A stretch of 64,000 nucleotides of DNA from Leucoraja ocellata (Eukaryota), in NCBI GenBank assembly GCA_036785375.1, contig JAWMAR010000021.1, positions 4,898,001 to 4,962,000 of the forward strand. Direction: 5' to 3'. Both the position numbers and the translations under genes were made by a program. The notes below the pieces were generated by a model. That model searched no databases. It was not told the origin of the DNA and saw only the letters and a program-made list of their open reading frames with translations. The stretch's first letter is position 1; every line of letters begins with the position of its first letter. Positions 2,894 through 62,936 of this stretch are shown here, piece by piece.

Positions 2894-3015
2894 GGTCTGA
2901 AGAAGGGTCCCGACCCGAAATGTCAACTTTCCATTTTCTCCAGAGATGTTGTCTGGCCCGTTGAGTTACTCCGGCATTTTGTGTCTATCTTTGGTATAAA
3001 ACAGCACCGTCAGTT
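2894..3015 (+). mobile_element. Penelope pLTR fragment with hammerhead-like core
   Basis: ggtCTGAAGAaGGGTcccgACCCGAAAtgtc. Confidence 0.7.
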
Positions 3016-3844
3016 TTTTATTACCTGGAGGAAATATCTTTTTTGGGATAAAAAGCTGACTTTGCATTATTCCTGATATAATGGATCATTTTTGTTTGAA
3101 GTGGTAATTACAGCAGAATCAGGGCATTTAGCCCATTGAATTCACTCTGCCATTCGTTCATGGCTGATTTTTTTTTTTTTTATCCTTCTCAAACCCATTC
3201 TCCTGCGTTCTCCCTGTAACATTCTCCCCGGCGGGCCATGTGGCCAGATGCACAAGACCTGTTGTGCTAGAGGGAACCCGCCGAGCCATCCCCTGCTCCT
3301 TCCCTGGAAACCAGCGATTGGAGAGATGGGAGCCTGAAGAGACTTGAGGAGCAAGGCCATTAGGAGAGAGGCTGCCAGAGGCGCCCCCAAGGCACAAAGG
3401 TGGATGGGTGAGGAGACTGACGTCAGTTCACTGGATGATACAGACGTCCAAGGAAGGCGATGGCTGGAGGCCTGCAGCAGCCTGAGGCTCGCCCAGATTG
3501 GGAGCCGCTCATAAGACCTCAAACATGGACTGCACTTTGAAAATGGCACCAAAGCTTGGCTCCTCAACCATGGGTTCTCAGTGGACTATTTCTGTACACT
3601 TTCCTAATCTAGGACCATTGACCGTAACATTGACAGAGAAATGTCTATGAATGTTAATTATATGGACTTCCAGAAGCCATTTGAAAAGGTCCATAATGGA
3701 AACCTTTAGCTGATACTCATGGGATTGAAGACTAATTATTAACCTCATTAGAGTGACAGAAAGTGAGAGCTCACGGTGTACTGAAAATAACCCCGTTTTG
3801 TAGTTCAAATTTACAAAGAACTAGGATTGTGGGATAAGGAGAGT

Positions 3845-4235
3845 CAAAACTATTTTATTGTCAGATGTCTCAAAACAGAACAATGAAATTTGTACGTGCA
3901 GCAGCGACGTAACAGGTTTGTAAATACAGGACTCAATAGATAATATAACGAACAAGGAAAAGTTCAATTAAAAAATCAATATAGTACCAAAACAAAACAA
4001 AGTCCCAAGTGCATCCCAAGCAATTCGTAGTTTGGAGTTCATAGTGTTCAACAGCCTAATGGTTGTTGGGAAGAAGCTGTTTGTTACAGTTTTCAGACTC
4101 TTCCCGGTGGCAGGAGTGAAATGAGAACATGGCCAGGGTGGTGTTGGTCCTTGATGAGGCTGGCTGCCTTTTTGAGAAAGCGCCTCATAGATCCTTTCAA
4201 TGGTGGGGTGGTCACTACCTGTGATGGAAATGTAC
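3845..4235 (-). mobile_element. Rex1/Babar-type LINE 3' fragment
   Basis: Minus strand encodes, with frameshifts, AAS.IKD.HHPGH...NSFFPTTIRLLN, then a tail ending tgacaataaa. Confidence 0.7.
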
Positions 4236-4688
4236 GTCAATCACCGTACAAAACCCACACGTCTTGAGGTGTGGGAGGAAACAGCTAGAATACGGTCCAG
4301 ACCTCCCATTTACCTTATTGGAGACCTTTGAACTATCTTTAATCAGACTCTGTCTGATTATCTGAATGTTGTACCATTTATCCATTATAGTGGAATCAAG
4401 GGATATGGGTGGAAGGCAGGCACAACATTCTGCTTATTGAATCGGGATGATCAGCCATGATCACAATGAATGGCGGTGCTGGCTCGAAGGGCCGAATGGC
4501 CTCCTCCTGCACCCATTTTCTAAGTTTCTATCTGTACAATATGAACAGCTTGATTGTAATCATGTATAGTCTTTTTGACTGGATAGCATGCTACAAACCT
4601 TTTTCACTGTACACTTGACAATAATAAACTAAACCAAACTAAGGAAACCAGAGCACCCGGAGGAAACCAACGCGGTTCCAGGGAGGAT

Positions 4689-6015
4689 ACTTAGAGATAA
4701 TATATATAATCATCTGGATAAACAGGGTCTGATGAGGAACAGTCACCATGGATTTGTGTCTGGAAGGTCATGTTCGATTAATCTTCTTGGATTTTTTTGA
4801 AGAGGTTACTAGGGAAATTGATGAGGGTAAAGCGGTGGATGTTGTCAATATGGACTTCAGTAAGGCCTTTGACAAGGTTCCACATGGAAGGTTGGTTAAG
4901 AAGGTTCAATTGTTGGGTATTAATAGTGGAGTAGCAAGATGGATTCAACATTGGCTGAATGGGAGATGCCAGAGAGTAATGGTGGATAACTGTTTGTCAG
5001 GTTGGAGGCCGGTGACTAGTGGGGTGCCTCAGGGATCTGTGTTGGGTCCACTGTTGTTTGTCATATACATCAATGATCTGGATGATGGTGTGGTAAATTG
5101 GATTAGTAAGTATGCAGATGATACTAAGATAGGTGGTGTTGTGGATAATGAAGTAGATTTTCAAAGTCTCCAGAGAGATTTAGGCCATTTGGAAGAATGG
5201 GCTGAAAGATGGCAGATGGAGTTTAATGCTGATAAGTGTGAGGTGCTACATCTTGGCAGGACAAATCAAAATAGGACGTACATGGTAAATGGTAGCGAAT
5301 TGAGGAATGCAGTTGAACAAATGTGCATAGTTCCCTGAAGGTGGAATCTCATGTAGATAGGGAGGTAAAGAAAGCTTTTGGTGTGCTGGCCTTTATAAAT
5401 CAGAGCATTGAGTATAGAAGTTGGGATATAATGTTAACATTGTACAAGCCATTGGTGAGGCCAATTCTGGAGTATGGTGTACAATTTTGGTCGCCAAATT
5501 ATAGGAAAGATGTCAAAAAAATAGAGAGAGTACAGGGGAGATTTATTAGAATGTTGCCTGGGTTTCAGCACCTAAGTTACAGAGAAAGGTTGAACAAGTT
5601 AGGTCTTTATTCTTTGGAGCTCAGAAGGTTAAGGGGGGACTTGATAGAGGTCTTTAAAATTATGAGAGGGATAGACAGGGTTGACGTGGATAACCTTTTT
5701 CCATTGAGAGTAGGGTAGATTCAAACAAGAGGACATGATTTGAGAATTAAGGGACAAAAGTTTAGGGGTAACATGAGGGGGAACATCTTTACTCGGAGAG
5801 TGGTAGCTGTGTGGAATGAGCTTCCAGTGGAAGTGGTGGAGGCAGGTTCGATTTTATCATTTAAAAATAAATTGGATAGGTATATGGACGGGAAAGGAAT
5901 GGAAGGTTATGGTCTGAGTGCAGGTAGATGGGACTAGGTGAGAGTAAGTGTTCGGCACAGACTAGAAGGGCCGAGATGGCCTGTTTCCGTACTGTAATTG
6001 TTATATGGTTATATG
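4689..6015 (+). mobile_element. Young 5'-truncated CR1 LINE (RT domain to 3' tail) inserted in a minus-strand V-SINE
   Basis: DFSKAFDKVPH, SGVPQGSVLGPLLF, YADDTK, LERRRLRGDLIE-like motifs; tail gttatatggttatatg; SINE halves at 4642-4688 and 6016-6112. Confidence 0.92.
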
Positions 6016-6168
6016 ATGTGCAAACTCCAGACAGACAAGACCTAAGTTTGTGATTGAACCCAGGTCTCTGGTACTGTGAAGCAGCTGCTCTACCAACTGC
6101 GCCACTGTACCTGTTATGAAAATAATATTTGACTATCGTTCTCAGCTATTCCAACTTGTATTTGACAG

Positions 6169-6287
6169 CTATTTCAGGCAGCTGGTGGAACAATTTGAGG
6201 TTCAGTTACAGCAGTATCGACAGCAGATAGAGGAACTGGAAAATCACCTTGCTACGCAGGCTAACAGCTCTCACATGACTCCACAAG
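6169..6287 (+). CDS. NUP58: NUP58 coding exon, coiled coil (YFRQLVEQFEVQLQQYRQQIEELENHLATQANSSHMTPQ)
   Basis: gacAG and GTttgt boundaries; 119 nt, phase 2 to 1; joins previous exon as GA+C = Asp. Confidence 0.97.
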
Positions 6288-6684
6288 GTTTGTACTTCCG
6301 AGAAAAAGCTTGAATACATTTTTCTGATTTTATGATTCCATCGAAATCATGAGAGGAATAGATTGGGTAGACGGACAATCTCTTGCCCAGAGTAGAGGAA
6401 TCGAGAACCAGAGGACATAGGTTTAAGGTGAGGGTGGGAAAATGTAATAGGAACCTAAGGGGTAAAGGGTGGTGGGTGGTGAGCTGCTGGAGGAGGTAGT
6501 TGAGACGGGAACTATTGCAATTTTTAACAAACATTTAGACAAGTACATGGATAGGACCGGTTTAGAGGAATATGGGCCAATTACAGACAGGTGAGACATT
6601 TTTCCATGCTGCATGACTGCCTCGCTGTGTAGGCTACCCTGGGAACATTATTTTTGTTGTTGATCATTATTGTCATTTCTACAG

Positions 6685-6767
6685 ATCTGTCTCTTGCAAT
6701 GCAGAAAGTATACCAGACATTTGTAGCTCTGGCTGCTCAACTTCAATCAATCCATGAAAGTGCAAAG
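6685..6767 (+). CDS. NUP58: NUP58 coding exon (DLSLAMQKVYQTFVALAAQLQSIHESAK)
   Basis: ctacAG and GTaaca boundaries; 83 nt, phase 1 to 0. Confidence 0.96.
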
Positions 6768-7633
6768 GTAACATCTAGTATTTGCTTATAATCTAAAAAT
6801 CCTTTCTGTAGATAAATCAAAACTTGTCTTTCATGTTCAGTATAGTTGTAGCAGTACCAAACGTGGTGACCAAACAGTTGATTTATTCAGATGTTACATG
6901 GTTGGTGTACATACAAGTTTGGTCCTCTAACATACTAAGCCATTGCTGTTGCTGCTGCTGTGCGAGGGTGTTGCCTCGAGCTCAGCTACCTGTACACCGA
7001 TGATCTCCAGGCGAGATCTGCTTATGTAGCAAGGCACTCCCCTTAACCCATGACGTCACGTAACTACTGACGAGGGTTCGACCGTAAGTGGTCTGACTAT
7101 CAGCTGACGCCACACCATAAAAATTACTATGTTGCCAATTTGATACAGTTGAAAGTTGCATGACAAATACAATCGCTGAAGAAAATGCAACTGACTTGGC
7201 TCCTCTCCCTTTATTTCTCTTTCCTTCTTGCTTTACTCCTGTTTCCAGTTTCGCATTGAATTTGTATCGTACTAAAGTTTTCACCTCGCTTGCCCCCTTA
7301 TTTTGGTTTCTGTTTTTTGGTCCTGTTTCCTCTTCAATCTCCACACTCGTCCCCATCTCTCCTATCCTCATTTTTCCTCTTAACTTCATTTTCTCTGCAT
7401 CTTTAAATCTGCTCGATTTGTAGTCTTGACTAGCTACATGCACTCTTGTGGGATATCCAGTGAAACATAATTTGTGTTTTATGATGGATAAATTGGATGC
7501 AGAAATTGTTCTCCACTGGATGCTAAATTCACAGTCGTGTGGGGAAAGATTATTCCAAAGGCTTGGAGTCTACTCACAGATGAAAAGTAAATCCTCGGGT
7601 TTTCTGAGCATTTCCTGAAATTGGTTTTGGAAA

Positions 7634-8025: not shown

Positions 8026-8600
8026 TATAAGGATATTTTAGAAACAATTGATTGTTAAATTATCTCAACTATCTACAGATAGTGTATTAATCCATGTAGG
8101 ATGAGAAGGATATATTAAACCATGATCCATGGCCAGTATAGGTGGAGGAAGTGTGGAACTCACCTTGATACAAAGAGAACATCAACATACCTCAAACTGA
8201 GCAAAGCACAGTGCTGGAGAAACTCAATGGGGCAGGCAGTATCTGGGGAGAGAATGGACAGATGACCTTCTTCAGTCTGATTCAAAAGAAAGGTCGTTGC
8301 TTGTCTATTTCCCCCCCCCCCCCCCCCAATACACTGCAAGAGCTGCTGAGTTCCTCCAGCACATTGTGCATTGTTTTCAGATTCCAGCGTCTGCAAATTC
8401 TTTTATCACCATTGGACCTCTAACTGATTTGGACTGTTACATTAATTACAGTATCAAGTTTGTACAAAATTTGCACATATTAAAAATAATAGTTGAATTC
8501 TAACGGAACAACGTGGATGCAAAAGTGATGTGGAGAAAATGTTTGTCTGTGTGTGCTTACAACTGGTGATTAAGTGAGTTGCCTTCCCCATGGATTAAAG

Positions 8601-8795: not shown

Positions 8796-8874
8796 GTTTC
8801 AAACAAGCTATTTACTTATTTTATCTTAGTATTGATTGCCATTCTGCATAATGAACTTTGACATTTCATTTCAG

Positions 8875-9073
8875 ATTCTAAGAGAGCAGTATCTTGGCTA
8901 CCGTAAGACATACTATGGTGATGCCACTGATGTCTTTGAAGCGAGGCGCGTTGAAACTAAGAAGTGGCAAAATACTCCACGTGTCACAACTGGGCCAACT
9001 CCCTTCAGCATACCAAATGCAGCAGCAGTTGCCATGGCTGCAACATTAACACAGCAGCAACAGCCTGCTACAG
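8875..9073 (+). CDS. NUP58: NUP58 coding exon (ILREQYLGYRK...KKWQNTPRVTTGPTPFS...TQQQQPATG)
   Basis: tttcAG acceptor, weak GTctga donor; 199 nt, phase 0 to 1; within ORF 8836..9096. Confidence 0.96.
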
Positions 9074-9096
9074 GTCTGAATGTCTTCAAGTTATAG
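9074..9096 (+). CDS. NUP58: Putative alternative C-terminus by donor read-through (GLNVFKL*), Nup45-like isoform
   Basis: In-frame GGT CTG AAT GTC TTC AAG TTA TAG; resembles recalled mammalian short-isoform end GLNAFKL; downstream AATAAA at 9402. Confidence 0.6.
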
Positions 9097-10145: not shown

Positions 10146-12492
10146 CTCAAACAATCCAAGTCATCTGCTTTCACAACTCCTCTAACACCTTTGATAGTTT
10201 GTTACAATACACAACAGATCATATTCTCATCTTCGATTGTGCAAGTTGTTGACTAAATTGATGGGAAAATGTTGTTGTATAAAATATCCCTCAATAAACA
10301 ATGGTAGTTTTTCATCATGGTTGCTATTCCAAATTAAGATAGGATGTCTGGGGTAGAAATGTTCTATCATAATTTAAGTTTTAGTGAGATAAGCAAATAT
10401 AGTGAATGAAAACACCTTGATATTTTTTATGAAGGTGTAACAATAAAGTTTACATTAAGAAAGTTCTACAATATGTGATTAATTTAAAAATAAATGGAAT
10501 TTGACACAAAGTAAATTGTTTACAATAGGGTGGTAAAGGAGTAGGAAGTCAGTATTAGAACGTTGGAATTCTTTATTCTTACTCCATGGTATTCTATTTA
10601 ACATATCCGAAAACAGCATTTAAAATGCGCGTTTTATATTTACTAATCTCAGCCACAAAACATTTCTGTTTTGTACAGTGAATATTTATTGATGGCTCGC
10701 CTCTTCCCTCCTCTCCCACAACCAGTTACAATGTGTAAAGTTAAAAAATATGATTAGAGTGTAAACAAATTTGAAGAAGGAAGAACAGTGTATTTGATAT
10801 TATTAACCAAAATTAATAGCACTGTAAACATTTAAGTAAATTAATTTGTAAGATATTTGCAAACCGGGGCTGCTAGAAAAAAGTGCAGGTAAGTCTGTGC
10901 ACATTTCATGTGCTGTATTTTATGAGTATAAAACAATGTTTCTGCTTTCTGAAAGAGCAGCATTTGAATTGTTCCACTGAAATCGATTGCCAAAAATTAT
11001 TACTACTTCCCAGTATTGTAATATTCCAAACACCTACATGAAGTCTTTCAGTGTACACAAACGCGCAGTGCCGCAGTTGCCTTCTTTACAGACACTAGGT
11101 TACAACACTAGTTTGGTTATGAAATCAGTCTTTGTAAAATATATTATATAATACTGCATTATCTGTAAAACTCATGTTATAGTCATATATGTATCTGTCT
11201 CTTCATTGTTCTTTGATATCTATGATAAAGGAAGACAGTGTCAATTCCTTGGCATATATGGGCTGAATTTTTGAATAATGATCAATTTTTCTACTTAAAT
11301 CATCTTTTCATAAATGTTCCAATTAGTTTTGCAAATTTTGAAATAACATATGCTAGCCTTTCTTGTTTCTGTATTGGTAGCATATTTCGTTTTTAAGTTT
11401 GCCTGTAGTTGTGCAAGAATTGTGGACAGCTTTGAAATGAGGCCTACGTAGGTGCCTAAGATTGGACTGTCTCAGGATTTGATCCATAGTTTTCTCTGAT
11501 GTTTTCCGGCATTTCTTTGGCATAATTATAATTCTTTGCTTCTCTGCACCTTCCACATTCCCCTTTGACAATTAACTCTTCTAGAACATCATACTACCAA
11601 AAGCAATATGTTCTACCATTGCACAGGGCAAAATAAGTAGTGTGTTTGAAATGTGAAAGTGTGGATGTGTTAAACCTACATATGAAGTGTAAATTCAGTG
11701 GTGCCTTTTTCAAACTGCGCACGCATAGAAATTCACTTCTGGTTGTAACTGCCTTTAGAACCTGAATATTCCCTCCGTTTATTTAAAAAGTTGCCTAATA
11801 TCAAACTGTAGTGCACTAAAAGCAAGAATATGGCAGTTATGAATTAACAAAAATGAAAATTTTATTGTTGTGTTGATATGTAATTGAGTTGTTTCAAAAA
11901 CTAAACAATAAATTGAGATGTGAAAGATCTTATTGTCTTCTTATGTATTTTTGTTCTTTAATTATTGCTCAATTGATTCATACTTGAATGCAATGCGCAT
12001 GTAAAGTTTATTTAAATCTAAAACTGAGGCTATGTCGCAGAATGCAGGCGATTTGCTTACTTTTAAAAATAACATTTGGGACATATAACTATGCTGAATA
12101 AAGGGACTTTAGTGTGAACACAATTAAAGCATAAAACAAAATAAGCCACCAAAGTAACTGTAAGGAGAAGATTAAGTATGATTTGCTTTGGATTTATTTT
12201 GTTTCCCAACTACTGCTGAGTAGATGAATTGGCAAAAAAGTGTTTAAAACTTGAAGTAGCATAGATATGGATCAGTCTCTTTTTGTTTTTCAATATTTGT
12301 TCTAGATTCTAATTTGTTTTGGATCAGTCTAAGCTTGACCCACATACATTTGAAGACTTTGCCCATTATTTTTAAGAGTGGCTGAAATAAAATTCTCGTA
12401 TTGGAGAGTCATTTTATAAAATATATGCTGAAAACTATTTCTAAGTGTAATGGAAATTTTTGTCTTTTTCTTCTTAATTATTTCTGTATCAG

Positions 12493-12591
12493 GATCACAG
12501 CCAGCTTTGGGAGTTAACTTTGGAGTACCGTTCGCCTCAGGTATTGGCACTGGCTTGCAGTCAACTGGCTTAGGTTCTACAACACTTGGAG
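12493..12591 (+). CDS. NUP58: NUP58 FG-region exon (SQPALGVNFGVPFASGIGTGLQSTGLGSTTLG)
   Basis: Polypyrimidine tract with atcAG, donor GTacaa; 99 nt, phase 1 to 1. Confidence 0.95.
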
Positions 12592-13874
12592 GTACAATTT
12601 TATTAAAAAACGTTTTTGTAATGTCCAAGGTTTCTTTTTACAGCTTTAGAAATAGTTTTCAAATGCATTGGGTCTCTTAAAGTGACTTTAAAATCAGTCG
12701 AAAAATAATTGCAATCCCATTCCGTAATCAAAATTTCCTTGCATGTTCTATGACAATTAACCTTACAAATTATTTTTGATGTTATTGCCAAATTTACCTG
12801 GTTGTTTCTCCTCTTTAACTTCCATACATTAATAAGAATCTGTGCTGCCTTCATCTAATGATATTTTATATGTGAACACTAATTTTGTTATCTCAGTTTA
12901 CAAAAACTAGAGGTTTTTTTTTTACTTTACTCAATTTCCAAGTTTTAAGGTGATTTGACATTAATTCTTTTTTTTGTGCCCTTTTCACCACCAACCCTCT
13001 CTTTCGCTATCTCCTCAAGCTTCTGCCATCACCTCTCCCATCATTTTACCAGCTCTGACATAAAACACTAAAAACAATAGAAATGTACAATATTTCTGTC
13101 AGCATCTCAAAGACAACAAATAAACTGCTTTGCGCATTAACACTTTTTGATTGCTAATGTATCTAGAGTATAACTCTACCTTTTGTTGTATGCTATTTGC
13201 AGCAAAATCTGATACTGTGAAACTTTGATAATTTGCTATCAAACTATTCAGAAATCCATTAGTTCAGCATCTGGCATGCCAGTTGATGTTTTTTTTGTGT
13301 TCCCAACCACTCTTTGGTTCCTGCACTAACTTTAAATTTACCTTAAAATAAAAAGTGAAATAAATATGTGTTGGGATCTTAGTAGAACAATAACTGATTG
13401 TTCAGGAAATCTGCTGCTCCAGCACCATCAAAATCCCTGGCGTTTCGCATTCACTCTACCTTTGTTGAAACATAATGTAACAATAGCCAAACACTGAATG
13501 CTGGAAGTCAGAAATAAAAGAAAATGCTGGGAAAATGAACAGGACAGGCAGTGTGGAATTTCCAGGTTGATGATCTTTGATTAGGAACGGAAAATATATA
13601 GAATAAAACAACTTTCACAATATTACAAAGAACAAAAGGATTAGTTGGGAGATTAAATAACAAAAGGGATGGAGATTGGACAAAGGGAAATAATTGGAGA
13701 TCAATCTGGAAGCAAGGTACATGGAAATAGCTGAACCATTGTCTGAAATTACTGAACACAACATTAAGTAGAAGGTTGTAACATGGAAAACCAAGGTGTT
13801 TTCATCCTCGGATTTCATTGGAACAATCTTGGAAGCTCAGTCTTGCATCCGGGAGACGATTGGGTCAACACGTG

Positions 13875-20339: not shown

Positions 20340-20830
20340 TTGCGCTCCATCTGCCTTGGCCTACGTGATCACCCGGTTGTCGAACATTTTAACTCCCATT
20401 CCAATACTGACCTTCCTGTCCTGTACCTCCTCCACTGTCAGTGAGGCCACGTGCAAATTGTAGGAACTGCACCTCATATTTGACTTGGCCAGTTTACAAT
20501 CCAGCGGTATGAACGTTGATTTCTCTAATTTCAAGTAACTCCTGCATTCCCACCCCCACCCTACTAGTTTCACTTTTTGTATCCTTGTATCCCTCTCATC
20601 ATCACATCTTCCCCAGCCGTCAATGGGCTATTATGTACTCCACCCTTCCTGAGGTCATCTGTTGCTGGCCTTGATTTGTTCTGGCCTTTCTCACCCCCCC
20701 AGTTTCCACACCCCTCACACCTCTATCTTTCAATCTGAAGAAGGATTCCGAGCTGAAACGTCACCTATTTCTTCTCGCCAGTGATGCTGCCTGATCCGCT
20801 GAGTTACTCCTGCATTTTGTATCTATCTTC
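20340..20830 (+). mobile_element. Old Penelope-like 3' fragment (GIY-YIG end plus pLTR)
   Basis: Similar to 39290-39696; degenerate ctgaagaagg...gaaacgtcacc at ~20735. Confidence 0.75.
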
Positions 20831-21524
20831 CACGTGTGTATATATGAACTCGACAAGCAAAAGACTCGTGTGTTTTCCTTAATTTGTTTTGGAATTAGGG
20901 CCGGTGCTTATGATGAATACTTAACAGGAAATGTTAACCAAAGACCCTGTTTCTTTGTTGCAATTCCTATCTACTCTCACTTAAGTGAGAATGAAATTCA
21001 TATGGGTGTCCAAAATTAATGGAACCATTTACCATTGTGCTTCATGGTTTAGGAATCATAGTTTCACTTTATCTCAATGAATCATACTTGTGTTGAAAAA
21101 GTACTTTATGGAGTAGGAATACAAATAACACAGTATTTTCTTTGTGGTTGAGAGCTAGAGGCATACAACGTGGACACAGGCCCCTCGGCCCAACTTGCCC
21201 ACACCGCCCGACATGCCCCATCTGTACTAGTCCCACCTGCCTGCCTTTGGCCCATATCCCTCTATCCATGTACCTGTCTAAATGTTTCTTAGATATTGCG
21301 ATAGTAGCAGTCTCAACTACCTCCTCTGGCAGCTCATTCCATACACTCACTATTTTCATAAAGGGTGCATCGAGCAAAGTTATTTAGTTTAGTTGAGTGA
21401 TGCACACAGAAACGGGCCCTTCAGCCAAACACCTGACTGATAAATTCTGAAAATCTAAAGAGAATATTATCCTCTTCGTCTCCTCAGTTGGCATTTTAAA
21501 CAGAACATTAGAAAATATTTTTAG

Positions 21525-25487: not shown

Positions 25488-25666
25488 GTTTTGGCAGCTC
25501 AACTACAACTGGATTTAACTTCAATAACCCTGGGATCACAGCGTCTGCTGGTCTGACCTTTGGTGTGTCCAATCCTTCAACATCAGGTCTTAGCAGCAAT
25601 CTTGTAGGGGGACAGCTCCTACAACTGAAGAAACCACCAGCCGGCAACAAGCGGGGCAAAAGATAG
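25488..25666 (+). CDS. NUP58: NUP58 last coding exon (FGSSTTTGFNFNNPGITASAGLTFGVSNP...QLLQLKKPPAGNKRGKR*)
   Basis: Long T tract then caAG acceptor; diagnostic C-terminus LLQLKKPPAGNKRGKR; stop TAG ends at 25666. Confidence 0.97.
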
Positions 25667-37678: not shown

Positions 37679-37689
37679 CCATTATTTTA

Positions 37690-39488: not shown

Positions 39489-39713
39489 TTTCAGGCAGTC
39501 CTTGCTTTCTCCCTCCTTCCTCTCCCCTTCCCAGCTCTCCCACAGCCTACTGTCTCCGCCTCTTCCTTTCTTCTTCCCGCCCCCCCTCCACCCCCACATC
39601 AGTCTGAAGAAGGGTCTCAATCCGAAACGTCACCCATTCCTTCGCTCCATAGATGCTGCCTCACCCACTGAGTTTCTCCAGCATTTTTGTCTACCTTAAA
39701 CTAAACTAATGTT

Positions 39714-43545: not shown

Positions 43546-43720
43546 TAGACACAAAGTGCTGGAGTAATTCAGTGGGCCAGGCAGCATCTCTGGAGAACGT
43601 GGATCTCTGAAGAAGGGTCCTGACCAATAACATCACCTATCTATTTACTCCAGAGTTGCTGGCTGAGTTACTCCAGCACTTTGCATCTAACGTTGGTATA
43701 AACTAGCATATTTAGTTGCT
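43546..43720. mobile_element. Fold-back Penelope pLTR-derived element
   Basis: caaagtgctggagtaa mirrored by ttactccagcactttg; central ctgaagaagggtcc. Confidence 0.75.
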
Positions 43721-46399: not shown

Positions 46400-46760
46400 T
46401 TAGTAGCGCCCTTATTTATAAATTAGAGGGTTCTAGGTTTAAATCCCATTCCCGCATCTTGTGCACTTGGTTCTGTACCTTCCCTTACCCCCAGTTTCCC
46501 CCTCCCCGACTCTGTCTGATGAAGAGTTTCGACCCGAAACATCACCTATTCCCTTTCTCCAGAGATGCTGTCTGAACCGCGCTGGGTCTGCAGTGAGGGA
46601 GTCGTGGACTGCACGAGGCTACTGCCTTTCAACGACTCGTTAAACTGAGACCCTGCCGCAAAATCTCTTGGGTGAATATAAAAGATGCCGTCAAAGAGGA
46701 GATGGGCACTTATCCCTTGTGTCCTGGGCAATATATCCATCAATCAATATTTCTGCAAAA
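46400..46760 (+). mobile_element. Ancient Deu-domain SINE interrupted by a pLTR fragment (46470-46580)
   Basis: gagggagt...cgttaaactgagaccc...taaaagat...tgtcctgggcaatat...tcaatcaatat. Confidence 0.65.
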
Positions 46761-47184: not shown

Positions 47185-47930
47185 TGGCTAGGCGATCGTT
47201 TCGCTGAACACCTTTCCTCAGTCTGCCTAGGCCTACACGATCTTCCAGTTGCCAAACACTTTAACTGCCATTCCCACTGACCTTTCTGTCCTGGGCCTCC
47301 TCCACTGTCAGAGATGAAGTCTGCAAATTGGAGGAACAGCAACCTCATATTTCACTTGGGCAATACAACCCAGTGGTATGAATATTGATTTCTCTAAAGT
47401 TGTAACCCTTGCATCCCCTCTCTCTCCGTCCCTCCCCCACACTAGTTGTCGTACCAATTTCGCTGCCGTCCCCGTTGCGTTTCACTGTCTGTATAACTCG
47501 TTATCTCCTACCCCACAGCCAACAATGGGCCATTGTAAGCCCCACCTTCCCAAAATCATTGTTTGGTTTTGTATATCTTTCATTCATTTGTTATATATGT
47601 ACCTATATCTCTCATTTCCCTGACTCTCAATCTGTAGGAGGGCCTCAAAACAAAATATGACATAAGGTACACAAAATTGCTGGAGAAACTCAGCGGGTGC
47701 AGTAGCATCTATGGAGCGAAGGAAATAGGTGACGTTTCGGGCCGAAACCCTTCTTCAGACTCCAGTCTGAAGAAGCAATTTTGTGTACCTTCGATCTTCC
47801 AGCATCTGCAGTTCCTTCTTGAACAAAATATCACCTATTCCTTTTCTCCAGAGATGCTGCTGGACCCGCTGAGTTACTTCAGTTTTTTTGCGTCTATCTC
47901 TGGTGTAAACCAGCATCTGCAGTTTCTACC
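47185..47930 (+). mobile_element. Old Penelope 3' fragment with a nested fold-back element (47659-47821)
   Basis: ggcgatcgtttcgctgaacacct GIY-YIG end; 10-bp duplication aacaaaatat at 47649 and 47822. Confidence 0.78.
47728..47760 (-). ncRNA. Minimal hammerhead ribozyme-like motif
   Basis: Reverse complement GT-CTGAAGA-A-GGGT(TTCG)GCCC-GAAA-CGTC-ACC. Confidence 0.6.
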
Positions 47931-48269
47931 GACATATTTTAATCGGAATTTACTGGACCTTATCTTTCATTAAACGCTATTCGCGTTATTTCCTTTATCA
48001 TGTATCTGTACACTGTGGACGGCTCGATTGTAATCGTGTATTGTCTTTCCACACACTCGTTGGCACGCAACAAAAGGTTTTTGCTGTACCTCAGAACCTC
48101 TGTGTCTAGTTCCACCCTCCTCATCTCCACTTCCACCCCGACTACATTTGTGGCCCTTTTTACTCTCCTTATCTGTTTCTACCTACAGCAACCCCCCCCC
48201 CCCCCCCCCCCCCCCCCAAAACTCTAACCATCCTCTTCCCCTGTCCAGCTCTTTCAGCTCCTGTATTAA

Positions 48270-48500: not shown

Positions 48501-48899
48501 AGATAAAAGACCTTGCCTGCCCAGCCTCCCCCTACAGCTCAGACCCTCAGGTTTTGGCACCATCCTTCTAAATCTTCTCTGCATTCTTACCAGCCTGTTT
48601 GTTCTCTGTGATGAGATGCATGTTTATGTTGTTGAACCTGTGACCCTCTGACCTTGGAGACTCAAGGAACCGCAGATGCTGGTTTAACAAAAAAAGGACA
48701 TAAGGTGCTGGAGTAACTGAGCGGGTCAGACAGCATCTCTGGAGGACAAGAATGGGTGATGTTTTCAGTCGGGACACTTCTTTAGGCTCCCTCAGGCCAT
48801 ACTGTTTGGGGGATGGGATTGTTTTAGGTCCTTCAATGAAAATCGGGCAGCACACCGTGGTGTAGAGCTGCTGCCTCACAGCGCCAAACACCTGGGTAC

Positions 48900-49890: not shown

Positions 49891-50842
49891 GCCTTGTATG
49901 AACGATGGAAATGAATGAATCGCACAATTATTAGACCAATGCAAATTCTTGCAAACTTGGGCCGAAGGGCCTGTATGCTGTATCTCTGAAATAAATCTGC
50001 CCTGCAACACGATGTCCGGCCAGCAGGGCTGTGTTACGAAGCCGGAGCAAAAAGTTGGTGGCCCTACCTGAGAGTGTTGAACTTCGCACGTGTTTCTCCT
50101 TTGTGTTGTGAGGGTAAACCTGCTGGGTAAACCATCCACCCTGCCTAGCCTCTGGTGTAACTGACTCACTGGTTAGGGCAGAGGGTTCAGCAGGGACTCA
50201 CCGCCACTGAACGAGTGAAGGGGAGGAGAGACAAGAACAAAGTAAAGCAAGGATCTTTGAAGTAAAGGGAGCTGGAGAAGGAGTGGCACTGCAGCAGCAG
50301 GCAAGTACAGGGAGCTGGAGTAGGGGCCGGCTACAATGAGGAACAACAACAACTGCTGCTGCAGCGTAAAGGGGGCGTTGAGGAACTGAAATGTTGGTCA
50401 CTCCTCCCTCATCGATACCAGCAGCTGCGAACCGCCAGTCAAGACACATGGACGGGAAAGAAGCAAGGATCTGCTGCAGTCCGGTGCACCGGCCAATCCT
50501 TTGTGAATCACAACGCTCAGCCAGCGCCAGCATCGATGCATTTCACGGACCCTGTGCGGGAATGCACTGGTAACATCGGACGGGATTACAAGACTGAGGA
50601 CTGAGTCAGAGAGTGGGAGCCAGCCAGCGCCGGTGAACTGGATTGAATGACCACTGAATAGGTCGCACAGTCTACTGCTTGTTCTTGCACTGGTCAGAGA
50701 AGAACCGTGGAAATGTTAGCAAGGGGGAACAATTCACGTTCTTGCCCCCTAAAGAGGAGAAACTATTGAATTTCTTTGCAAAATCCAACTGCGCTGCCCT
50801 AGTGCACGGTGATGAAGTCTATCTATCTATCTATCTATCTAT

Positions 50843-50972
50843 CTGAAGAAGGGCCCCGACCCTAAACGTCGCCTGTCCACGTTCTCCAGAGATGCTGCCT
50901 GGCACGCTGACTTCCTCCAGCAGTTTGTGTTTTGCTGAATATCCCAGCATCTGCAGTTCCTCGTGTCTCTGT
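50843..50972 (+). mobile_element. Penelope pLTR fragment ~160 bp upstream of the SHISA2 ATG, preceded by (ctat)n
   Basis: ctgaagaagggccccgaccctaaacgtcgcc...cagcatctgcagttcc. Confidence 0.75.
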
Positions 50973-51087: not shown

Positions 51088-51483
<396 letters not shown>

Positions 51484-51665: not shown

Positions 51666-52139
51666 ACTGCTGCCTGACCGCTGAGTTTACTTAAACGGAC
51701 AGCGTATTCTTCATGCTGCCCAATTCGCCCTCCACTCGCTGCCTGACCCACCCGCCGAGTTCCTCCAGCACTTTGTGTTTTGCTGAAGGTTCCAGCACCT
51801 GCAGTTCATTCTGTGCCCTCTTTGTATTACGTTACTTGCGAGAAAGCAGCGGGTCACATCGCTAATGCAGGTAAAACCAAAAGGGCAAACACAAGACGAA
51901 GAAGCAATTGAAGGAAATATTGGCAGCAGCTGATCAAGTGGTCTGTGATCGCGAACAGCAAGCAGCGTGGAGATTAGTTTAGACTGAATTCCCGTGGTGT
52001 GCAACTTGCTAGATCAGTACCTCGGTTTTGCGCTATTGTCCCAGTTACCTAGTATTACTTACCAGGAATGTATTATTGTATATTCATAGTTGCGTCAATC
52101 AACGTGCCTGTGTAAAGTTGCAGCAAGTAAGCATGTTAT

Positions 52140-52350
52140 AATGTGTATGAAGTGAACTGCAAATGCTGGTTTACACCCACGATAGACATAAAATGTTGGA
52201 GTAACTCAGCGGGTCAGGCAGCATCTCTAGAGAAAATGAATAAGGTGACGTTTCCAGTCGAGACCCTTCAGTCTGAAGAAAAAATGTCTCGACCCGAAGC
52301 GTCAACTGTTCATTTTCGCTAGAGATGCTGCCGAATTACTTCAGCATTTC
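52140..52350. mobile_element. Fold-back Penelope pLTR-derived element
   Basis: ggcagcatctctag...ggtgacgtttc...cttcag, then tctgaagaa...cgacccgaagcgtc...ctagagatgctgcc. Confidence 0.78.
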
Positions 52351-54279
52351 ATAAGATCCATGTCGGACATAGAACAGCACAGCTCTGGAACAGGCCCTTC
52401 GGCCCACAATGTCTGTGTCCACCATGATAACAAGTTCAACTAATCTTCTCAACCTGCACATGATCCATATCCCTCCATATCTAAAATACCTCTCTAAACG
52501 CCAATTGACCAGTCCGTGGGACTGTGGAGAGGTACATACAATGGCCCACTGACTGACTGACTGACCTGCGGCGGAGAGGCATGCACTGCGGACTATCTCC
52601 ACAGAGGCACAGATGTGGCACTGGCTGAGGCAAAGCGATGGCAGAACATTGTCTGACACACGAGCGAACGAAAAGTCCGTGGGACAAATGTCCCAGCTCC
52701 CCAATTCTGCCTCCTCTTTAGCTGTGTGTGTGTGTGGAACACAGTGCCTTTGTTACTAAGTTAAATGTTGGAAGAACTCAGCACATGAGGCAGGTGGGAC
52801 TAGTGTAGTTGGGACATGTTGGCCGGTGTGGGCAAGTTGGGCCGAAGGGCCTGTTTCCACACTGTATCACTCTTTGACTCGATGCATTTATAACGTGGGA
52901 GGATAAAACCAGACGACTTTCTCGTCCAGAACGGGGTCCCTGCTTCCGTTCAGAAAGTATGCTCTTGTGGGCTTTAGTCTTTAAGACCAGGGAGACCCAT
53001 GCATTGGAGAAGCTTCAGACAGAGTGTGTCGACATAGACTTTAACTGGAGCACTTGTGCAACTTAACAACCCGGGAGAGCCGTCCGTCTATCGTGGCAGC
53101 GGCGTGCAGGGCGGTGCATTGGGAACGACCGTGCGGAGCCAGCCCTCCCTCACTCGTTGAAAGCGGGAGCAGGACATGTCAGGAACTGACCACATGAGGT
53201 CCGTTGCGTTGCACAGAAAAACATGTAAATGCAAACCGTACCGCCTTTTATGGCGATCGGCAGTTCCCAGCTATTTCTCCATCATTTAGTTGCAACTAAT
53301 TGGTCTCTTTAAAAAAAAAACAAAAGACGGTGTTTAGAAGAGACAGATTCCAGTGTACAATCTTGGGCTGTTATGTTTCATAACATCGCGGTTTATTTCC
53401 AAACCTCACCACATAGAATGCACGGTCTAGGTTTGAAATTGTTGTTATTATCGAAAAATAAGCGTTGTCCACTCATGCTAAAAGTGGCAATTACAAAGAT
53501 AATTTAGTGTTTTTGAGAGGTATTTAATGGTGCATTGCAATAAAATTCAAAGACCACACAAGTGAGTGAAAGTTTGCAAGGTCTCAAAAAAACATCCAGA
53601 CAAAAGCACAACAAATAAACCCGGCAAAATAAATAACTTCCCCGAAGCTTCCAGTCCCAGCGCAGCGAAACAGCTGGGTCAGTTTAACTCACTGGGGATT
53701 TGTTTACTCGTGTGATATTGCTATGAATTATTTCCCACCTTAAAACGATAAACGGCATCACCTGCCTTAACACTAAGTGCTGGAGGAACTCAGCGGGTCA
53801 GGCAGCATCTGTGGAGGGAATGAACAGGCAACGTTCATTCCCTCCACAGATACTGCCTGATCCGCTGAGTTACACCAGCATTTTGTGTCTATGTGCTGGA
53901 GGAACTCAGCGGGCCAGGCAGCATATCTGGAGAGAAGGAATGGCTAACGTTTCGGGCCAAGACTGTTCTTCAGACTCTGAAGTCTACTTCATACTTCTTA
54001 CGTCTCAGAGTCTGAAGAAGGGTCTCCAGCCTTTCGTGTCTATCTTCGATTTAAACCAGCATCTGCAGTTCCTTCCTACAGAGTACCCCCAGCACTGTGT
54101 TCTGTTCAAGATTCCAGCATCTGCAGTTCGTTGTGTCTCCAATCCCTGCCTTAAACTGGGTTCAGTTTAATACCAAGGGCTTGTCCCAATAACATGTTTA
54201 TTCTTTATAGCTAGCCCGATGAGATTTCTACATGTGATAAAGCCCCCCTATCACTAGTTGGTTGCCCATCTGTTTTTTG

Positions 54280-54864: not shown

Positions 54865-55220
54865 TTATTTAGTTTAGAGATACAGCGTGGAAGTGGGCTA
54901 TTCAGCCCACAGAGTCCACACCGACCATCGATCACCCATTCACACTAGTTCTGAAGAAGGGTTCTGAACCAAAACATCACCTACTTTCTCCAGAGATGCT
55001 GCCTAACTCACTGAGTTCCTGCAGCATTTTGTGTCTATGTTCGGTATAAACCAGCATCTGCAGTTCCTTCCTCGGCACTAGTTCTATGTTATCCCTCATT
55101 CTCGTCCACTCCCTACATAGTGGGGCAATTTTCAGAAGCCAATTAACCTACAAACCCTTAGGAGTGCAGGGGGAAACTGGAGCACCCGGAGGAAACCCAC
55201 GCAGTCACAGTGGAGAACGT
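54865..55220 (-). mobile_element. V-SINE with a pLTR insert (54953-55075)
   Basis: cactagttct duplicated at 54943-54952 and 55076-55085. Confidence 0.8.
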
Positions 55221-55639
55221 GCTAACATCTTTGATAATCCTGAGTTCTTCCAGCAGTCTGTTTGTCCACTTTTAGAATCTATACACTGAGTTTCATCTCC
55301 AAAATTTTTATTTCAAAGGTTTATTCCTTTTAAAGAAATTAAGAATACTTTCATAAAGGTGCTGGTTAAAGGATAAATTATGTTTGTACAGTCTTGCTTT
55401 ACTTTCTGAAGACTGCTTCCAAGCCCAGCCATGGTGGCATGAAACGGTATTTGTGGTATAAAAGGTATAGATAGGGCTTTGTCATGTTCAGGTCAAGATG
55501 CTGCCCCTGTGCCAACTCTCCATATCGACTGGGAAAAGAACTACAAGCTGAACAGAACACCATGAAAAGGGACTATTCTTTTACCACCACAGGAAGGAAG
55601 ACCAAGGGGTGGGAGTGCATGGAACACATTTTACACCAA

Positions 55640-56080
55640 AGGTAGACACAAAATGCTGGAGTAACTCAGCGGGTCATGCAGCTTCTATGGGGAAAACAAA
55701 TAGGTGACGTTTCGGGTCGAAACCCTTCTTCAGACTGAGAGTTGGGGGGAGGGAAACAAAAGGTATGAAAAGGTTCAGAACAAATCAGAGCTGACAGTGA
55801 AGAGAAAGGTAGGAGGAGGGAAGGTGGAGCCCACAATGGTCCATTGTTGGCTGTGGAAATGGTGATAATGAAGGTATATATGGATGCGAACAGTGGAACC
55901 TGCAGGATGACTAGGGTGTGGGAGGGACAGAAAGAGGGAATGCAAGGGTTATTTGAAATTAGAAAAAAAATCAAGATTCACAACACTGGGTTGAGCTGCC
56001 CAAGTGAAATGTGAGGTGTTGTTCCTCCAATTTGTTTGTGGCCTCACTCTGACAGTGGAGGAGGCCCAGGACAGAAAGGT
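55640..56080 (-). mobile_element. Penelope 3' fragment with intact hammerhead motif
   Basis: Reverse complement of the GIY-YIG end (NWRNNTSHF frame as in 39253 ORF) plus pLTR. Confidence 0.8.
55703..55736 (-). ncRNA. Minimal hammerhead ribozyme-like motif (best copy)
   Basis: Reverse complement AGT-CTGAAGA-A-GGGT(TTCG)ACCC-GAAA-CGTC-ACC; palindromic ACGT stem III, GUC cleavage triplet. Confidence 0.65.
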
Positions 56081-57361
56081 CTGAAGTTCCTTCTTACACA
56101 TTTTACACAGGTGGTGGGTCCATGGAGCACATTTTACACAGAGGGAGTGCCTGGAACATTTTTGCAAGGAGGGTGGGAGGTGCCTGGAACAAGCTATCAG
56201 CTGCTCCAAATATTTCAATGCAATGACAGTGTAAATGTATAATGCAGAGTTATTTACAATGCATTTTGAAGATTGGACTTTAAGGTCACTCCCACCCTTG
56301 TGTGCACTGGAACTAGTGCTGGCTGCATGGAAACTTGCATGAACAGTACTACTGGTATACTAACAGATTAGGAAGACGGGCCATTCAGAGTTAAATCTAG
56401 TTATTGCTGTGTGTTACATACTAATCTTATGGATGTGTGTGCATTGGTCCATAACTCCTACTGTTACTTTACATTCAATGTTTGGGGAATCTCTTTGGAC
56501 ATGCCAGCAAACGAAATAAATTTGAAATCGGCCTGAAGAAGGGTCCCTACCCGAAACCTCGCCTACCCGTGTTCTCCAGAGATGCCGCCTGACCCGCCAA
56601 GTTGCTCCATCACTTTGTGTCTTTTTTTTCTAAACTAGCATCTGCAGTGCCACGTTATAGTCATACAGCATGGAAACCAGCCATTCGGCCTAACTTGGCC
56701 ATGCCGACCAAGATGTCCCATCTTCACTCATCCCACCTGCCCACCTTTGGCCAATATCCCACTAAACATTTCCTATTCGTGTACTTGTCCAAATGTCTTT
56801 TGAACTTTGTGATAGTATCTGTCTCAACTACCTCATCTGGCAGCTCGTTCCATTTACCCACCAAACTTCTGTGTGGAAAAAGTTACCATTCTCATTCCTA
56901 TTAAAACCTTCCCCTCTCACCTTAAACATATGACCTCTGGTTCTTGATTCTCCTACTCAAGATAAAAGACTCTGTGACTTTTCCTTGCAGTCCTTCTTAA
57001 ATAAACATTAGCCACCCTCCAGTCTTCTGGTACCTCACCTGTATCTCCAAAATCAATACAGTATCAGATGACAGTGACAAGTTGCCCCAGTGTTCATTGT
57101 TTAGTGTGAAAACTCTTTGTATTTCTTTGAATCCAATCTAACTCAACCTTGCTATCATTTAGAGCAGCAATTGGATATTCTTCTCCATGTTGTGCTTCAA
57201 ATAATTGTGGTCTGTGAACATTTCCCGAGATGTGTCACCAGACTGCAATGTGGGTACAGGGTGAAGTATTGGGAGTGTTGCATCTTACAATTATTTATCC
57301 ATAATATTAGCTGTGACGTTATTCAGCAGGGAGGTAACAAATGACATTTTATCACAGAATT

Positions 57362-59857: not shown

Positions 59858-60200
59858 CCAGTCATCCCCTCTTCACCCCTCTCCTATCGGGCAGAAGATA
59901 CAAAAGCATGAAAGCGGGTACCGCCAGATTCATGAACAGCTTATTCCCCGCTGTTATCGGACTACTGAACGGTGAAATCGAGGGTGTAATCCCCATCTCC
60001 CAACCTTCCGCACTATCTCCTTAACTTTATTTTCTCTACCACTGGAACTCTGATGCTGTAAGACTACATTCTGCACTCAGCTATTTTTCTCTTTGTACTA
60101 ACTCTTGTACTTGATGTGGCTTGTTTGTGCTCGTGTATAGTATGACTTGATTGGATAGCATGCATCACAGAGATTTTGGTACTCGTGTCAACAACAAACC
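59858..60200 (+). mobile_element. Rex1/Babar-type LINE 3' fragment
   Basis: SHPLFTPLLSGRRYKSMKAGTARFMNSLFPAVIGLLN. Confidence 0.78.
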
Positions 60201-61254
60201 AACCAACATATTTGGAGTCACAGAGTCGTACAGCGTGGAAATAGGTTCAACGTGCCCACGCCGGCCACCGTGGCCCATCTACACTGGTCCCACCTGCCTG
60301 CATTTGGCCCATATCCCTGTAAACTGGTCCTAGCCATGTACCTGTCTAAATGTTACTTAAACATTTCAATAGTACCTGCCTCGACTATCTCATCCGACAA
60401 CACGTCCATACATCCATCTCACCCCCCCCCCCCCCCCCTCCCCACCCCTTACCTTAAACCTGTCCTTTGGTTCTCTGCCCCCAGACTGGGCAAAATACAA
60501 TACAATACCATTTATTGTCATTTGAACCTCAAATTAAATTCAAACAAAATTTGGTTTCTGCAGTCATACAACAACAAGAAAAACTAAGACACACAATTAA
60601 CACAATTCACACAAACATCCATCACAGTGAATCTCCTCCTCACTGTGATGGGAAGGCAGAGTCATTGTCTCGCCCCTGTTTTCCATTCTTCTCCCGATGT
60701 TAAAACTGTAAAAAAACTCTGCATTTACCCAATCTATTCCTCTCGTGATTTTGCACACTTCTATAAGATCACCCCTCATCCTCCCGCGCTGCAAGGAATA
60801 GTCCTAAATATAGAACAATACAGTCAACATTCCTGGAGAAAAGGAATAGGTGCCGGTTCAGGTCGGAAACTTCCTCGGTCCTTTTTCTCCAGAGATGCCG
60901 AGTTACTCCAGAATTTTGTGTCTATCTTCAGTATATAAACCAGCATCTGCAGTTCCTTCCTACACTTAGAACAGCACTGGCACGGCCCTTCATGCCGGGC
61001 GTTACATGTGGGAGCCTAGTGCATCATATGCAACCCTCTGTTGCTACACTACCGTCCAACATAGCCCTGAGCTAAAGCTTTATGTGAGTTATCGCATCAC
61101 AGAGAGTGCATATTGTGTGCCACTGAAACTATTTACCAACCCAGGTGCCCAGTGCCCAGGTGTTGATCTACTACAGAGAACGCAGCCTTATTCTGAAAAT
61201 GGCAAAACTTTAAATCAGTTCAATAGCTGAAGTCTCCCATATTATCAATAAATT

Positions 61255-61710
61255 GACTGAGTATATAATGTTGCAGTTGTATAATAGGTTGGTGAGGCCA
61301 CATTTAGAGTATTGTGTTCTGTTCTGGGCACTATGTTACAGGAAAGATGTTGTCAAGTTGGAAAGGGTGCAGAGAAGATTTACGAGGATGTTGCCAGGAC
61401 TCGAGGGCCTGAGCTATAGGGGGAGATTGATCAGGCTGGGACTATTCCTTGGAGTGTACAAAATCATGAGAGGAATAGATCGGGTAGACGCGGGTGAGGG
61501 GAAGGAAAGATTTAATAGGAACCTGAGAGGTACTTTTTTCACACAAAGGGTGGTGGGTGTATGGAACGTGCTGCCAAGGACTATTGCAATGTTTAAGAAA
61601 CAATTAGACAGGTGCATAGATAGGACAGGTTTGGTGGGATAGGGGCCAAACTCGGGCAGGTGGGACTAGTGTAGATGGGACGTGTTAGTCAGTGTGGGCA
61701 AGTTGGGCAG
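61255..61710 (+). mobile_element. CR1 3' fragment
   Basis: LVRPHLEYCVLFW...LERVQRRFTRMLPGL. Confidence 0.87.
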
Positions 61711-62936
61711 CATCTCTGGAGAACATGGATAGGTGAAGTTTCGGGAAGGGACCCTTCTTCATACTGACTGAAGTTTAGGCCCTTTCTGTGTTTGAGTTGA
61801 TGGGCCCAGTTTCCTTACTTGTTGCAGAGAGCGTCGTTGTGCCTAGACGTCACATCGTGATGTTTCACAATCTTCATAAACATTTGTATCCATATTTCCA
61901 GCTCTTTCTTTGGTTCGTTTTGTGGAATCATATAGCACAGAACCAGACCCTTCAGCCTAACTTTCCCACACCGACCAAGATGCCCCATCTACACTAGTCC
62001 CACCCGCTCGCATTTAGCCATATCCCTATAAACCTTTCCTATCCATGTACCTGTCCAAATGTCTTTTAAATGTTATTATTTGTACCTGCCTAACCACCTC
62101 CTCTGGCAGTTCGATCCATATACACACCATACTCTGTGTGGAAAACATTGCCCCTCAGGTTTCTATCAAATCTTTATTGCTTAGTTTAAGTTGATCTATT
62201 ATTGTCACATGTACCAAGGTACAGTGAAAAGTTTTTTATTGAGCGCTAACTAGTCAGTGAAAAGATAAAGCAGTGGCAAGAGAGCCTGTTTCCACGCTGT
62301 ATCTCTAAACTAAACTATTCTAACGATTTAGGACATTTACACTCTCATTTTCTTTTATAATTCAATGTCTGGTTATTTTTGATCTGCCAATGTGCACAAA
62401 CGTGACTAGCTCTGACAGACATCGTGGTCAGCTTGGACTGGTTGGGCTGAATGGCCTGTTTCCTATGACTTTCTTTTGGGAGGGTTCCTTAAACTATGAT
62501 ACATATTTTATGTTGAAGGCACAATATAAAGTGCGACAATTAGTTTCTTCTCGTGTATTATTTCTCCTGATTCCGTTTGGCAGTTGATATAGAAGTTTAA
62601 ATGCGCGCACCTCAAAACTCAGGAACAGCTTATTCCCCTCTGTCATCAGGCTTCTGAATGGTCTTTGCAATGTCCCTTGCAATATTACAGACCATTAATT
62701 TTTATCGTGCATTTGGCACATAACGTGCACATTAACTTTTTAAGGGGAATGCTCTGTGCTATTTAGTTTCTTGTTTTCTGTTTCACCTTAGAGGAGGGTG
62801 TACAGAGAAATTATTGTCCTCGGAATGAAATGCACACTGATCATTACAGTTCATGAGGCACAAGTCTTCATTTGGTTCAACCTTCTCCTCTGAACAGAAA
62901 TTGTTCAAGACCAGAACGGTTTAGTTTAGGCATTAA

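Follow-up and report, generated by a model that had tools for sequence, protein, structure and literature searches.

Minimal hammerhead ribozymes of Penelope-like elements (PLEs) contain a CUGANGA/GAAA core with an extra base between positions 9 and 10.1 and a G10.1-C11.1 pair, carry a palindromic 15.2-16.2 segment without a stem III loop, lie in the pseudo-long terminal repeat (pLTR) of the element, and are found mostly as solo copies or close pairs on opposite strands (PMC4209133; here and below, comparisons draw on passages of the published sources). We analyzed 64,000 nucleotides (nt) of the skate Leucoraja ocellata (contig JAWMAR010000021.1, positions 4,898,001-4,962,000, forward strand; hereafter the window), in which a first-pass annotation had described a dense family of such motifs on both strands. 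The motif is a minimal type I hammerhead in the pLTR of a Penelope-like retrotransposon and has been spread by its insertions. All four features listed for PLE hammerheads (PMC4209133) are present in the skate family, apart from rich covariation. Because the kind has been known since 2014, the motif itself is no discovery. The family does lend genome-scale support to the in vitro finding that uncut RNA serves as the template for PLE insertions, and the sharp 5' boundary of its copies at -3/-2 (numbered from core C3; predicted cut at +28/+29) bears on what the PLE hammerhead is for.

Allowing at most six substitutions, the 31-nt hammerhead motif has 23 matches in the window (12 plus, 11 minus), and order-2 Markov shuffles of the window gave none in 20 of 20 trials, which bears out the dense family on both strands. 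Eighteen of the 21 positions listed earlier match directly at this threshold and the other three (31421, 52245 and 52273) show the motif with insertions or deletions; five further matches (2484, 26806, 30804, 31557 and 48755) were not on that list. The motif forms the 5' part of a repeat of ~135 nt, and a profile of the whole repeat recovers 42 copies in the window. In a 934-kb sample, made up of the window, 200 kb of neighboring DNA and 670 kb from other large contigs, a strict hammerhead descriptor has 33 matches, compared with 0-2 in five Markov controls. An Rfam scan returned no hammerhead family match at E≤10 in the window; its weak microRNA matches are due to hairpins formed by head-to-head pairs of copies.

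The invariant core (C3 U4 G5 A6 N7 G8 A9 ... G12 A13 A14 A15.1, U16.1 and H17) is present, as are the CUGAAGA and GAAA segments, extra A, 4-bp stem II and ACGU palindrome that the annotation had described. The extra A between 9 and 10.1 shows ~0% change in 33 aligned copies linked to an open reading frame (ORF), and G-C is the commonest 10.1-11.1 pair. The stem II loop does vary, as had been stated, but the commonest loop genome-wide is CUCG, followed by UUCG. With its CUCG/UUCG-type tetraloop, the 4-bp skate stem II is shorter than the 7-8 bp of Schistosoma, and the proximal stem I of 2 bp is like that of D. virilis, whereas others have 4-5 bp (PMC4209133). ACGU replaces stem III (15.1-16.1), and a duplex formed through it in trans adds ~-3.1 kcal/mol; a predicted dependence on dimers follows from this palindrome and the literature. 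The covariation across copies that the annotation had proposed as a check is limited to one-sided U-A to U-G changes between subfamilies in a very uniform family.

The source element is organized as pLTR (TCAGT, hammerhead, tail), ORF (reverse transcriptase (RT), CX4CXXC linker, GIY-YIG) and pLTR. The hammerhead lies ~115-150 nt 3' of the GIY-YIG stop codon on the same strand in the window copy and in 21 of 30 loci selected by their RT; a sense hammerhead stands upstream of the ORF in 14 of 30 long young loci; and in 3 of 16 stretches two hammerheads, spaced 3.95-4.0 kb apart, flank an open frame of 1,183-1,263 codons. The earlier assignment to the Penelope-associated minimal hammerheads thus holds. 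In one such locus (L230), the first ATG at +165 opens a 1,239-residue ORF that has a proline-rich low-complexity insert and the motifs ADKG, RYIDD, the linker (CNRKRCNTC at residue 1130) and GIY-YIG, although the RVT_1 and GIY-YIG Pfam matches of the young ORF are both under the curated cut-offs. Seven units are 96.7-98.8% identical to one another, which indicates recent activity of the element.

A single ORF with RT followed by a C-terminal GIY-YIG endonuclease identifies an endonuclease-positive (EN+) PLE. The family also shows pLTRs from partial tandems, an inverted 5'-truncated partner and an optional tail (30-40 nt in the published elements), which it shares with Neptune EN+ PLEs along with the CX2-5CXXC linker (Craig et al., 2021, PMC8557442). 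This linker between RT and endonuclease is a Neptune feature that is also found in Nematis (PMC8557442). The skate sequence fits the published definition, so that a Neptune-type assignment, with the clade read from the linker, appears reasonable; the skate ORF is distinguished by its length and its proline-rich insert.

Several other retroelements were met beside this unit. One long young Penelope-like copy (L150) lies inside another retroelement with a 5-nt target-site duplication (2688-2692, 6323-6327); the region upstream of it was considered as the 5' end of the element and rejected, as it belongs to that other retroelement. A different young retroelement family (L169-L197), whose RT looks DIRS-like to us, holds a solo antisense pLTR/hammerhead copy at ~1395-1497 of the oriented loci. 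A pattern locates this copy at one shared position in 24 of 29 loci, and inspection shows it there in the remaining five; it starts at C3, stops near +95 and is amplified there as a passenger. A second, very young Penelope-like family (L244-L273) has a 759-codon frame that is 30% identical to the first and forms tandem arrays on many small contigs. Within 1.5 kb of its GIY-YIG, the descriptor found no hammerhead in 30 loci, and five inspected loci have no CUGANGA.

The scale of the family is considerable. The whole-repeat profile finds 498 copies in the 934-kb sample, and a tail-only profile 419, with none in a reversed control. Genome-wide there are 24,241 exact copies of the 31-mer and 54,021 of the 46-nt tail of the youngest subfamily, with none of either in controls. 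The 670-kb portion, which comprises large contigs only and contains 5 exact 31-mers (4.7 expected) and 6 young tails (10.5 expected), has 323 pLTR fragments (4.8% of bases, ~480 per Mb), 19 of which keep the core, four stem II pairs and ACGU. Extrapolated to the genome, this would amount to ~1.6 million fragments and ~98,000 intact folds. The family is far more numerous and more uniform than those of coelacanth (~4,000) and Xenopus (~9,000) (PMC4209133), and its ~10^5 intact folds match the 126,247 hammerhead motifs of axolotl in a much smaller genome (PMC7229834). The young subfamily combines intact ORFs and abundant exact tails with a hammerhead that is non-coding because the start codon is at +165; its core can therefore be mutated without a change in the protein.

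Animal non-LTR retrozymes, which reach similar copy numbers, are likewise short non-coding hammerhead units from PLE pLTRs (PMC7229834; bioRxiv 10.64898/2026.07.22.740005). Retrozymes form head-to-tail arrays of 170-400 nt, whereas only 29 of the 498 skate copies have a direct (same-orientation) neighbor and 166 are head-to-head; the skate hammerhead also stands at the 5' edge of the copy, unlike that of retrozymes. The 2026 preprint includes one chondrichthyan genome. Cartilaginous fishes are unnamed in the passages of PMC4209133 used here and in two of its three supplements, which contain no shark or skate term, and our literature search, which lay outside the remaining supplement, found no report of hammerhead motifs in skate PLEs. 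The family itself may already be named in repeat libraries (Repbase/Dfam).

How the core has fared was assessed in ORF-linked copies chosen without use of the hammerhead: of 49 ORF ends, 40 had a tail and 33 were aligned, with seven dropped for distance and two near-duplicate pairs kept. Core sites differ from the column majority in 18 of 328 cases (5.5%) and tail sites in 166 of 1,654 (10.0%; p=0.009). This difference disappears in tail columns without a subfamily variant (85 of 1,363, 6.2%; p=0.70), so that inserted copies decay neutrally and the core-tail difference sits in the subfamily variants. The expectation that the core would be conserved beyond the rest of the pLTR therefore fails among inserted copies, as is expected of dead copies. 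Subfamily variants are absent from the 10 core columns and present in 9 of 51 tail columns; the hammerhead has them at four positions: loop 2, a U-A to U-G change in stem II, GUC to GUU, and a U-A to U-G change in stem I. All four changes are tolerated by the hammerhead, and GUU is an accepted cleavage triplet under established hammerhead rules. These patterns suggest that source elements alone maintain the hammerhead, which undergoes neutral decay once inserted. Selection might also have been read from genome-wide A-to-T variants, which are more frequent at N7 (836) and the extra A (708) than at the lethal positions A6 (398) and A9 (365). We rejected this reading, as other repeats show the same context effect (1.43% in AAG, 30/2092, and 0.77% in GAA, 25/3249).

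Copy ends speak to the template. The majority of copies represent short insertions: among the 498, 80 extend into the untranslated region (UTR) and 18 are tail-to-tail. Target-site duplications of at least 7 nt flank 30 of 113 solos, compared with 3.2% by shuffling, and solo copies are therefore real insertions. Their 3' ends cluster near +91-95 and +130. Among 364 non-long copies, the 5' end lies at -5 to +2 in 144, at +3 to +26 in 102, at +27 to +31 in 9 and further 3' in 109, and thus concentrates immediately ahead of the core rather than at the cleavage site; the references were cut at -5, where 37 ends pile up, and solo flanks are at background composition from -6 on. A set of 30 young copies comprises 12 long ones, 12 that start at -6 to +1, three at +3 to +10 and three at +29. 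The last three suggested cut templates, a candidate that we rejected: +29 has 14 of the first 100 of 1,433 listed young ends against 7-14 at neighboring positions (a hand tally with a pattern that excludes the +29 fold-back), and fold-back junctions number 33 at +29 and 70 at a matched GC control. A further control, at +17 (100 junctions), is unmatched and carries microhomology of 4 nt. An origin from a splice acceptor, suggested by the pyrimidine tract and CAG before the core, was rejected as well, since solos share no upstream exon and have background composition in their flanks.

The closest experimental parallel is PAc, a Poseidon-clade PLE of Anolis carolinensis (Frangieh et al., 2024, PMC11167929). 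Like the skate element it has a pLTR hammerhead and two internal 3' ends ~35-40 nt apart. It inserts from uncut RNA, and its start codon lies within the hammerhead, in contrast to +165 in the skate. Cleavage of the PAc hammerhead is assisted by protein, insertion is independent of cleavage, and no RNA ends occur at the cut site (PMC11167929). We consider it likely that the short skate copies, too, are reverse-transcribed from uncut RNA, that the ribozyme cuts rarely, as a dimer or with the element protein, and that the copies in the window are inert. Transcription would start at or near the initiator-like TCAGT just before the core; a similar TCACT is found in a rotifer pLTR (PMC3846280), and Drosophila Penelope has an internal promoter (PMC2377424). 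The element protein would nick DNA and initiate reverse transcription at internal positions, the two tail sites, a mode established for PAc. Complementary DNA (cDNA) primed in the first pLTR of the RNA would run off its 5' end to give a solo copy of 95-135 nt that includes the uncut hammerhead, whereas priming in a downstream pLTR would leave long copies that are 5'-truncated or partial tandems. The head-to-head pairs could arise where both strands of a single break serve for priming; self-priming on an antisense template has been proposed as another origin of such pairs (PMC3846280). The hammerhead would be maintained in source elements only, with neutral decay afterwards.

RNA from three raw-read runs of a related skate can be set beside this account. 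The commonest 5' loose ends are at -3, -2 and -1 (563, 288 and 158 in one run). Depth is smooth with no step at the cut site, and the three runs show no end pile-up and no site where a fifth of molecules begin or end. Rare cleavage is compatible with these data, because the reads are mostly read-through of scattered copies and the libraries are fragmented. In single-cell reads (runs X22 and X23; L230:3700-4190) minus-strand reads of the repeat outnumber plus-strand reads ~3.5-fold, and more than 20-fold in the 3' UTR. Possible causes are oligo-dT priming at internal sites, antisense transcription and depletion of sense RNA. The tail also has a predicted long-range hairpin (L230:4089-4157, +48 to +116) that closes near the two 3' end positions and is a candidate protein-binding or RT-start structure.

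A number of points weigh against templating by uncut RNA with occasional cleavage. The start site is placed from copy ends only, and self-cleavage of this hammerhead is a prediction from its sequence. Stem I consists of two contiguous pairs, two mismatches and two more pairs (pairs 1-2 form in 88% and 85% of copies, 3-4 in 6% and 3%, 5-6 in 91% and 84%). Two-sided compensatory stem changes were not seen in this very uniform family. The predicted monomer structure is not a hammerhead (stem II probability ~0 in the young unit and 0.4 at 55733), folding z-scores range from -1.0 to +1.6, and the contrast between 0 of 10 core and 9 of 51 tail columns is too small for significance alone. The three young copies at +29 represent two events. 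No end at +29 is expected from a circular template that was cut and religated. Finally, of the 30 long young loci none starts at -5 to +2, while 14, which exceed unit length, continue into a unit upstream. A simple model of the start site leaves this pattern unexplained; tandem transcripts, circles or strand transfer could account for it. Five of the 30 long young copies (L201, L206, L220, L221 and L227) begin at ~+85 to +88, +115 or +130, adjoining the two copy-end positions, that is, near exact unit length.

The loci that exceed unit length are what would be expected if the hammerhead were essential, as in the model of Cervera and De la Peña: tandem hammerheads would excise RNA of unit length for ligation into a circle, RT would run round the circle to generate partial tandems, and short copies would be by-products. 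Religation would restore the site and leave no ends at +29, and the core is unchanged across subfamilies. This model does not explain why short copies stop at -5 to +2, and PAc hammerhead mutants insert normally in vitro (PMC11167929). Among the best-supported joints listed in the RNA reads, none closes at the cut site, although short reads could not show a seamless junction. On balance we regard an essential role through circles as quite unlikely.

Strand transfer offers a different route to the same loci. Solo copies could be integrated "strong-stop" cDNAs, in which reverse transcription from +92/+130 to the 5' end at ~-3 would normally be followed by homology transfer to the 3' pLTR. Cleavage at +28 in the 3' pLTR would then set the limits of a terminal redundancy of 31 nt, comparable to R of retroviruses; partial tandems would come from repeated transfers, and the million solo copies from failed ones. 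A literature search found no paper that states this reading. It is unlikely; were it true, the PLE hammerhead would have a defined job, and intact young units with tens of thousands of near-identical copies make the idea testable in the skate family.

At the other extreme, the hammerhead may be vestigial, persisting through overlap with an internal promoter or protein-binding region and not cutting even as a dimer. The 2-bp proximal stem I and competing folds would fit, as would the fixation of a GUU triplet and of U-G pairs in the youngest subfamily and the parts of the tail that are as invariant as the core; moreover, cleavage was absent in 8 of 9 dimers of Xenopus retrozymes (bioRxiv 10.64898/2026.07.22.740005). 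Against this, all four subfamily changes within the motif are of kinds that a hammerhead tolerates, and the same architecture cleaves weakly as a dimer (PMC4209133) or with protein (PMC11167929). A vestigial hammerhead is therefore improbable in our judgment. Cleavage of such variants as dimers is reportedly the subject of a paper by Lunse et al. in 2017.

The features in the window are as follows. Many copies had been described as decayed, and indeed only 4 of 42 keep the core, all four stem II pairs and ACGU (33157+, 39604+, 47758- and 55733-).

37681-39488, plus strand: decayed 3' part of a Penelope-like ORF (RT, Cys linker, GIY-YIG), 66-72% identical to residues 624-1259 of intact ORF P0056 by tblastn
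39489-39709, plus strand: 3' UTR, TCAGT, hammerhead at 39604-39631 and tail of the copy above, with core, 4/4 stem II and ACGU all preserved and a cut predicted at 39631/39632
36606-37674, minus strand: inverted 5'-truncated partner with GIY-YIG end, 3' UTR, decayed hammerhead 36713-36740 and tail (inverted repeats I1/I2; blastn to intact unit)
33155-33258, plus strand: short intergenic solo whose hammerhead, 33157-33184, is intact (cut predicted at 33184/33185)
55628-55741, minus strand: antisense copy within the SHISA2 intron that has a remnant of the 3' UTR and, at 55706-55733, an intact hammerhead (cut predicted at 55706/55705)
47664-47944, both strands: head-to-head pair; hammerhead 47731-47758 of the minus copy intact
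2376-2616, both strands: head-to-head pair in a NUP58 intron, both cores broken
2888-3030, plus strand: solo sense copy in a NUP58 intron that retains the invariant core and has AUGU as its decayed palindrome
8207-8416, both strands: head-to-head pair in a NUP58 intron, internally deleted
20727-20835, plus strand: sense copy in a NUP58 intron, 3' of GIY-YIG remnant 20340-20532; core kept, 3/4 stem II pairs
26745-26949, both strands: head-to-head pair
28282-28425, minus strand: decayed copy with 3' UTR remnant
30754-30960, both strands: head-to-head pair, whose hairpin is the source of the weak Rfam microRNA matches
31421-31638, both strands: decayed fragment at 31421 and head-to-head pair 31456-31638
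32267-32405, minus strand: decayed copy with a fold-back junction at its 5' end
35938-36050, plus strand: decayed solo copy
43530-43728, both strands: head-to-head pair
44380-44519, minus strand: decayed copy with 3' UTR remnant
46510-46580, plus strand: decayed copy
48652-48789, minus strand: decayed solo copy, absent from the earlier list
50834-50969, plus strand: decayed solo copy shortly upstream of SHISA2 exon 1
52138-52349, both strands: head-to-head pair in the SHISA2 intron (earlier listed as 52245- and 52273+), both damaged
53769-54082, both strands: two adjoining head-to-head pairs in the SHISA2 intron; minus copy at 53973 keeps the core and 2/4 stem II pairs
54948-55081, plus strand: sense copy in the SHISA2 intron, G12 lost
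56525-56660, plus strand: sense copy in the SHISA2 intron, palindrome broken
60821-60972, both strands: head-to-head pair in the SHISA2 intron
61702-61770, minus strand: decayed antisense copy in the SHISA2 intron
2136-2276, 6167-6295, 6678-6788, 8872-9078, 12489-12593 and 25475-25663, plus strand: Nucleoporin_FG2 (NUP58-type) exons, from PF15967 matches
51133-51453, plus strand: SHISA2 exon 1; the intron runs past 64000, with exon 2 just beyond the window end

The GIY-YIG match of the window ORF (E=0.005) is under the Pfam cut-off, and the UTR between this frame and the hammerhead at 39604 is rich in pyrimidines.

Two host genes carry intronic copies. Nucleoporin_FG2 (PF15967) has 12 exon matches on the plus strand, running through the window to 25663, and we read this gene from its family, not from a named match, as probable NUP58. 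SHISA2 exon 1 matches a named protein of the skate Amblyraja radiata at 99% identity. The annotation was right that sense copies lie inside introns of both genes; the relevance to these genes that it implied is not supported. None of the 42 window copies is a sense intronic copy with core, stem II and ACGU: the best, at 2897 and 20735, carry the palindrome and stem II defects given above, and the four intact folds are intergenic, except for 55733-, which is antisense to SHISA2. Nor is there a strand bias, with five plus and two minus copies in the NUP58 introns of the window, two plus and five minus in NUP58 introns upstream, and seven of each in the SHISA2 intron. It could be argued that the ~10^5 intact folds genome-wide could pair in trans with sense intronic copies, which would then cut or regulate NUP58 and SHISA2 pre-mRNA, and the ~3.5-fold strand bias of the single-cell reads might be cited in support. 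Set against the damaged copies, the balanced strands, neutral decay after insertion and smooth RNA depth across the site, such regulation is highly improbable, and the host-gene copies are probably inert.

Much of what remains of the window is occupied by a second abundant repeat resembling short interspersed nuclear elements (1769-63704; families D1, D7, D10, D12, D13 and D19), probably of HE1 type, and by RT fragments (RVT_1) of long interspersed nuclear elements (4736-5335). The gap between NUP58 and SHISA2 is only 25 kb here (25663-51133); in human, the large gene ATP8A2 lies between the two.

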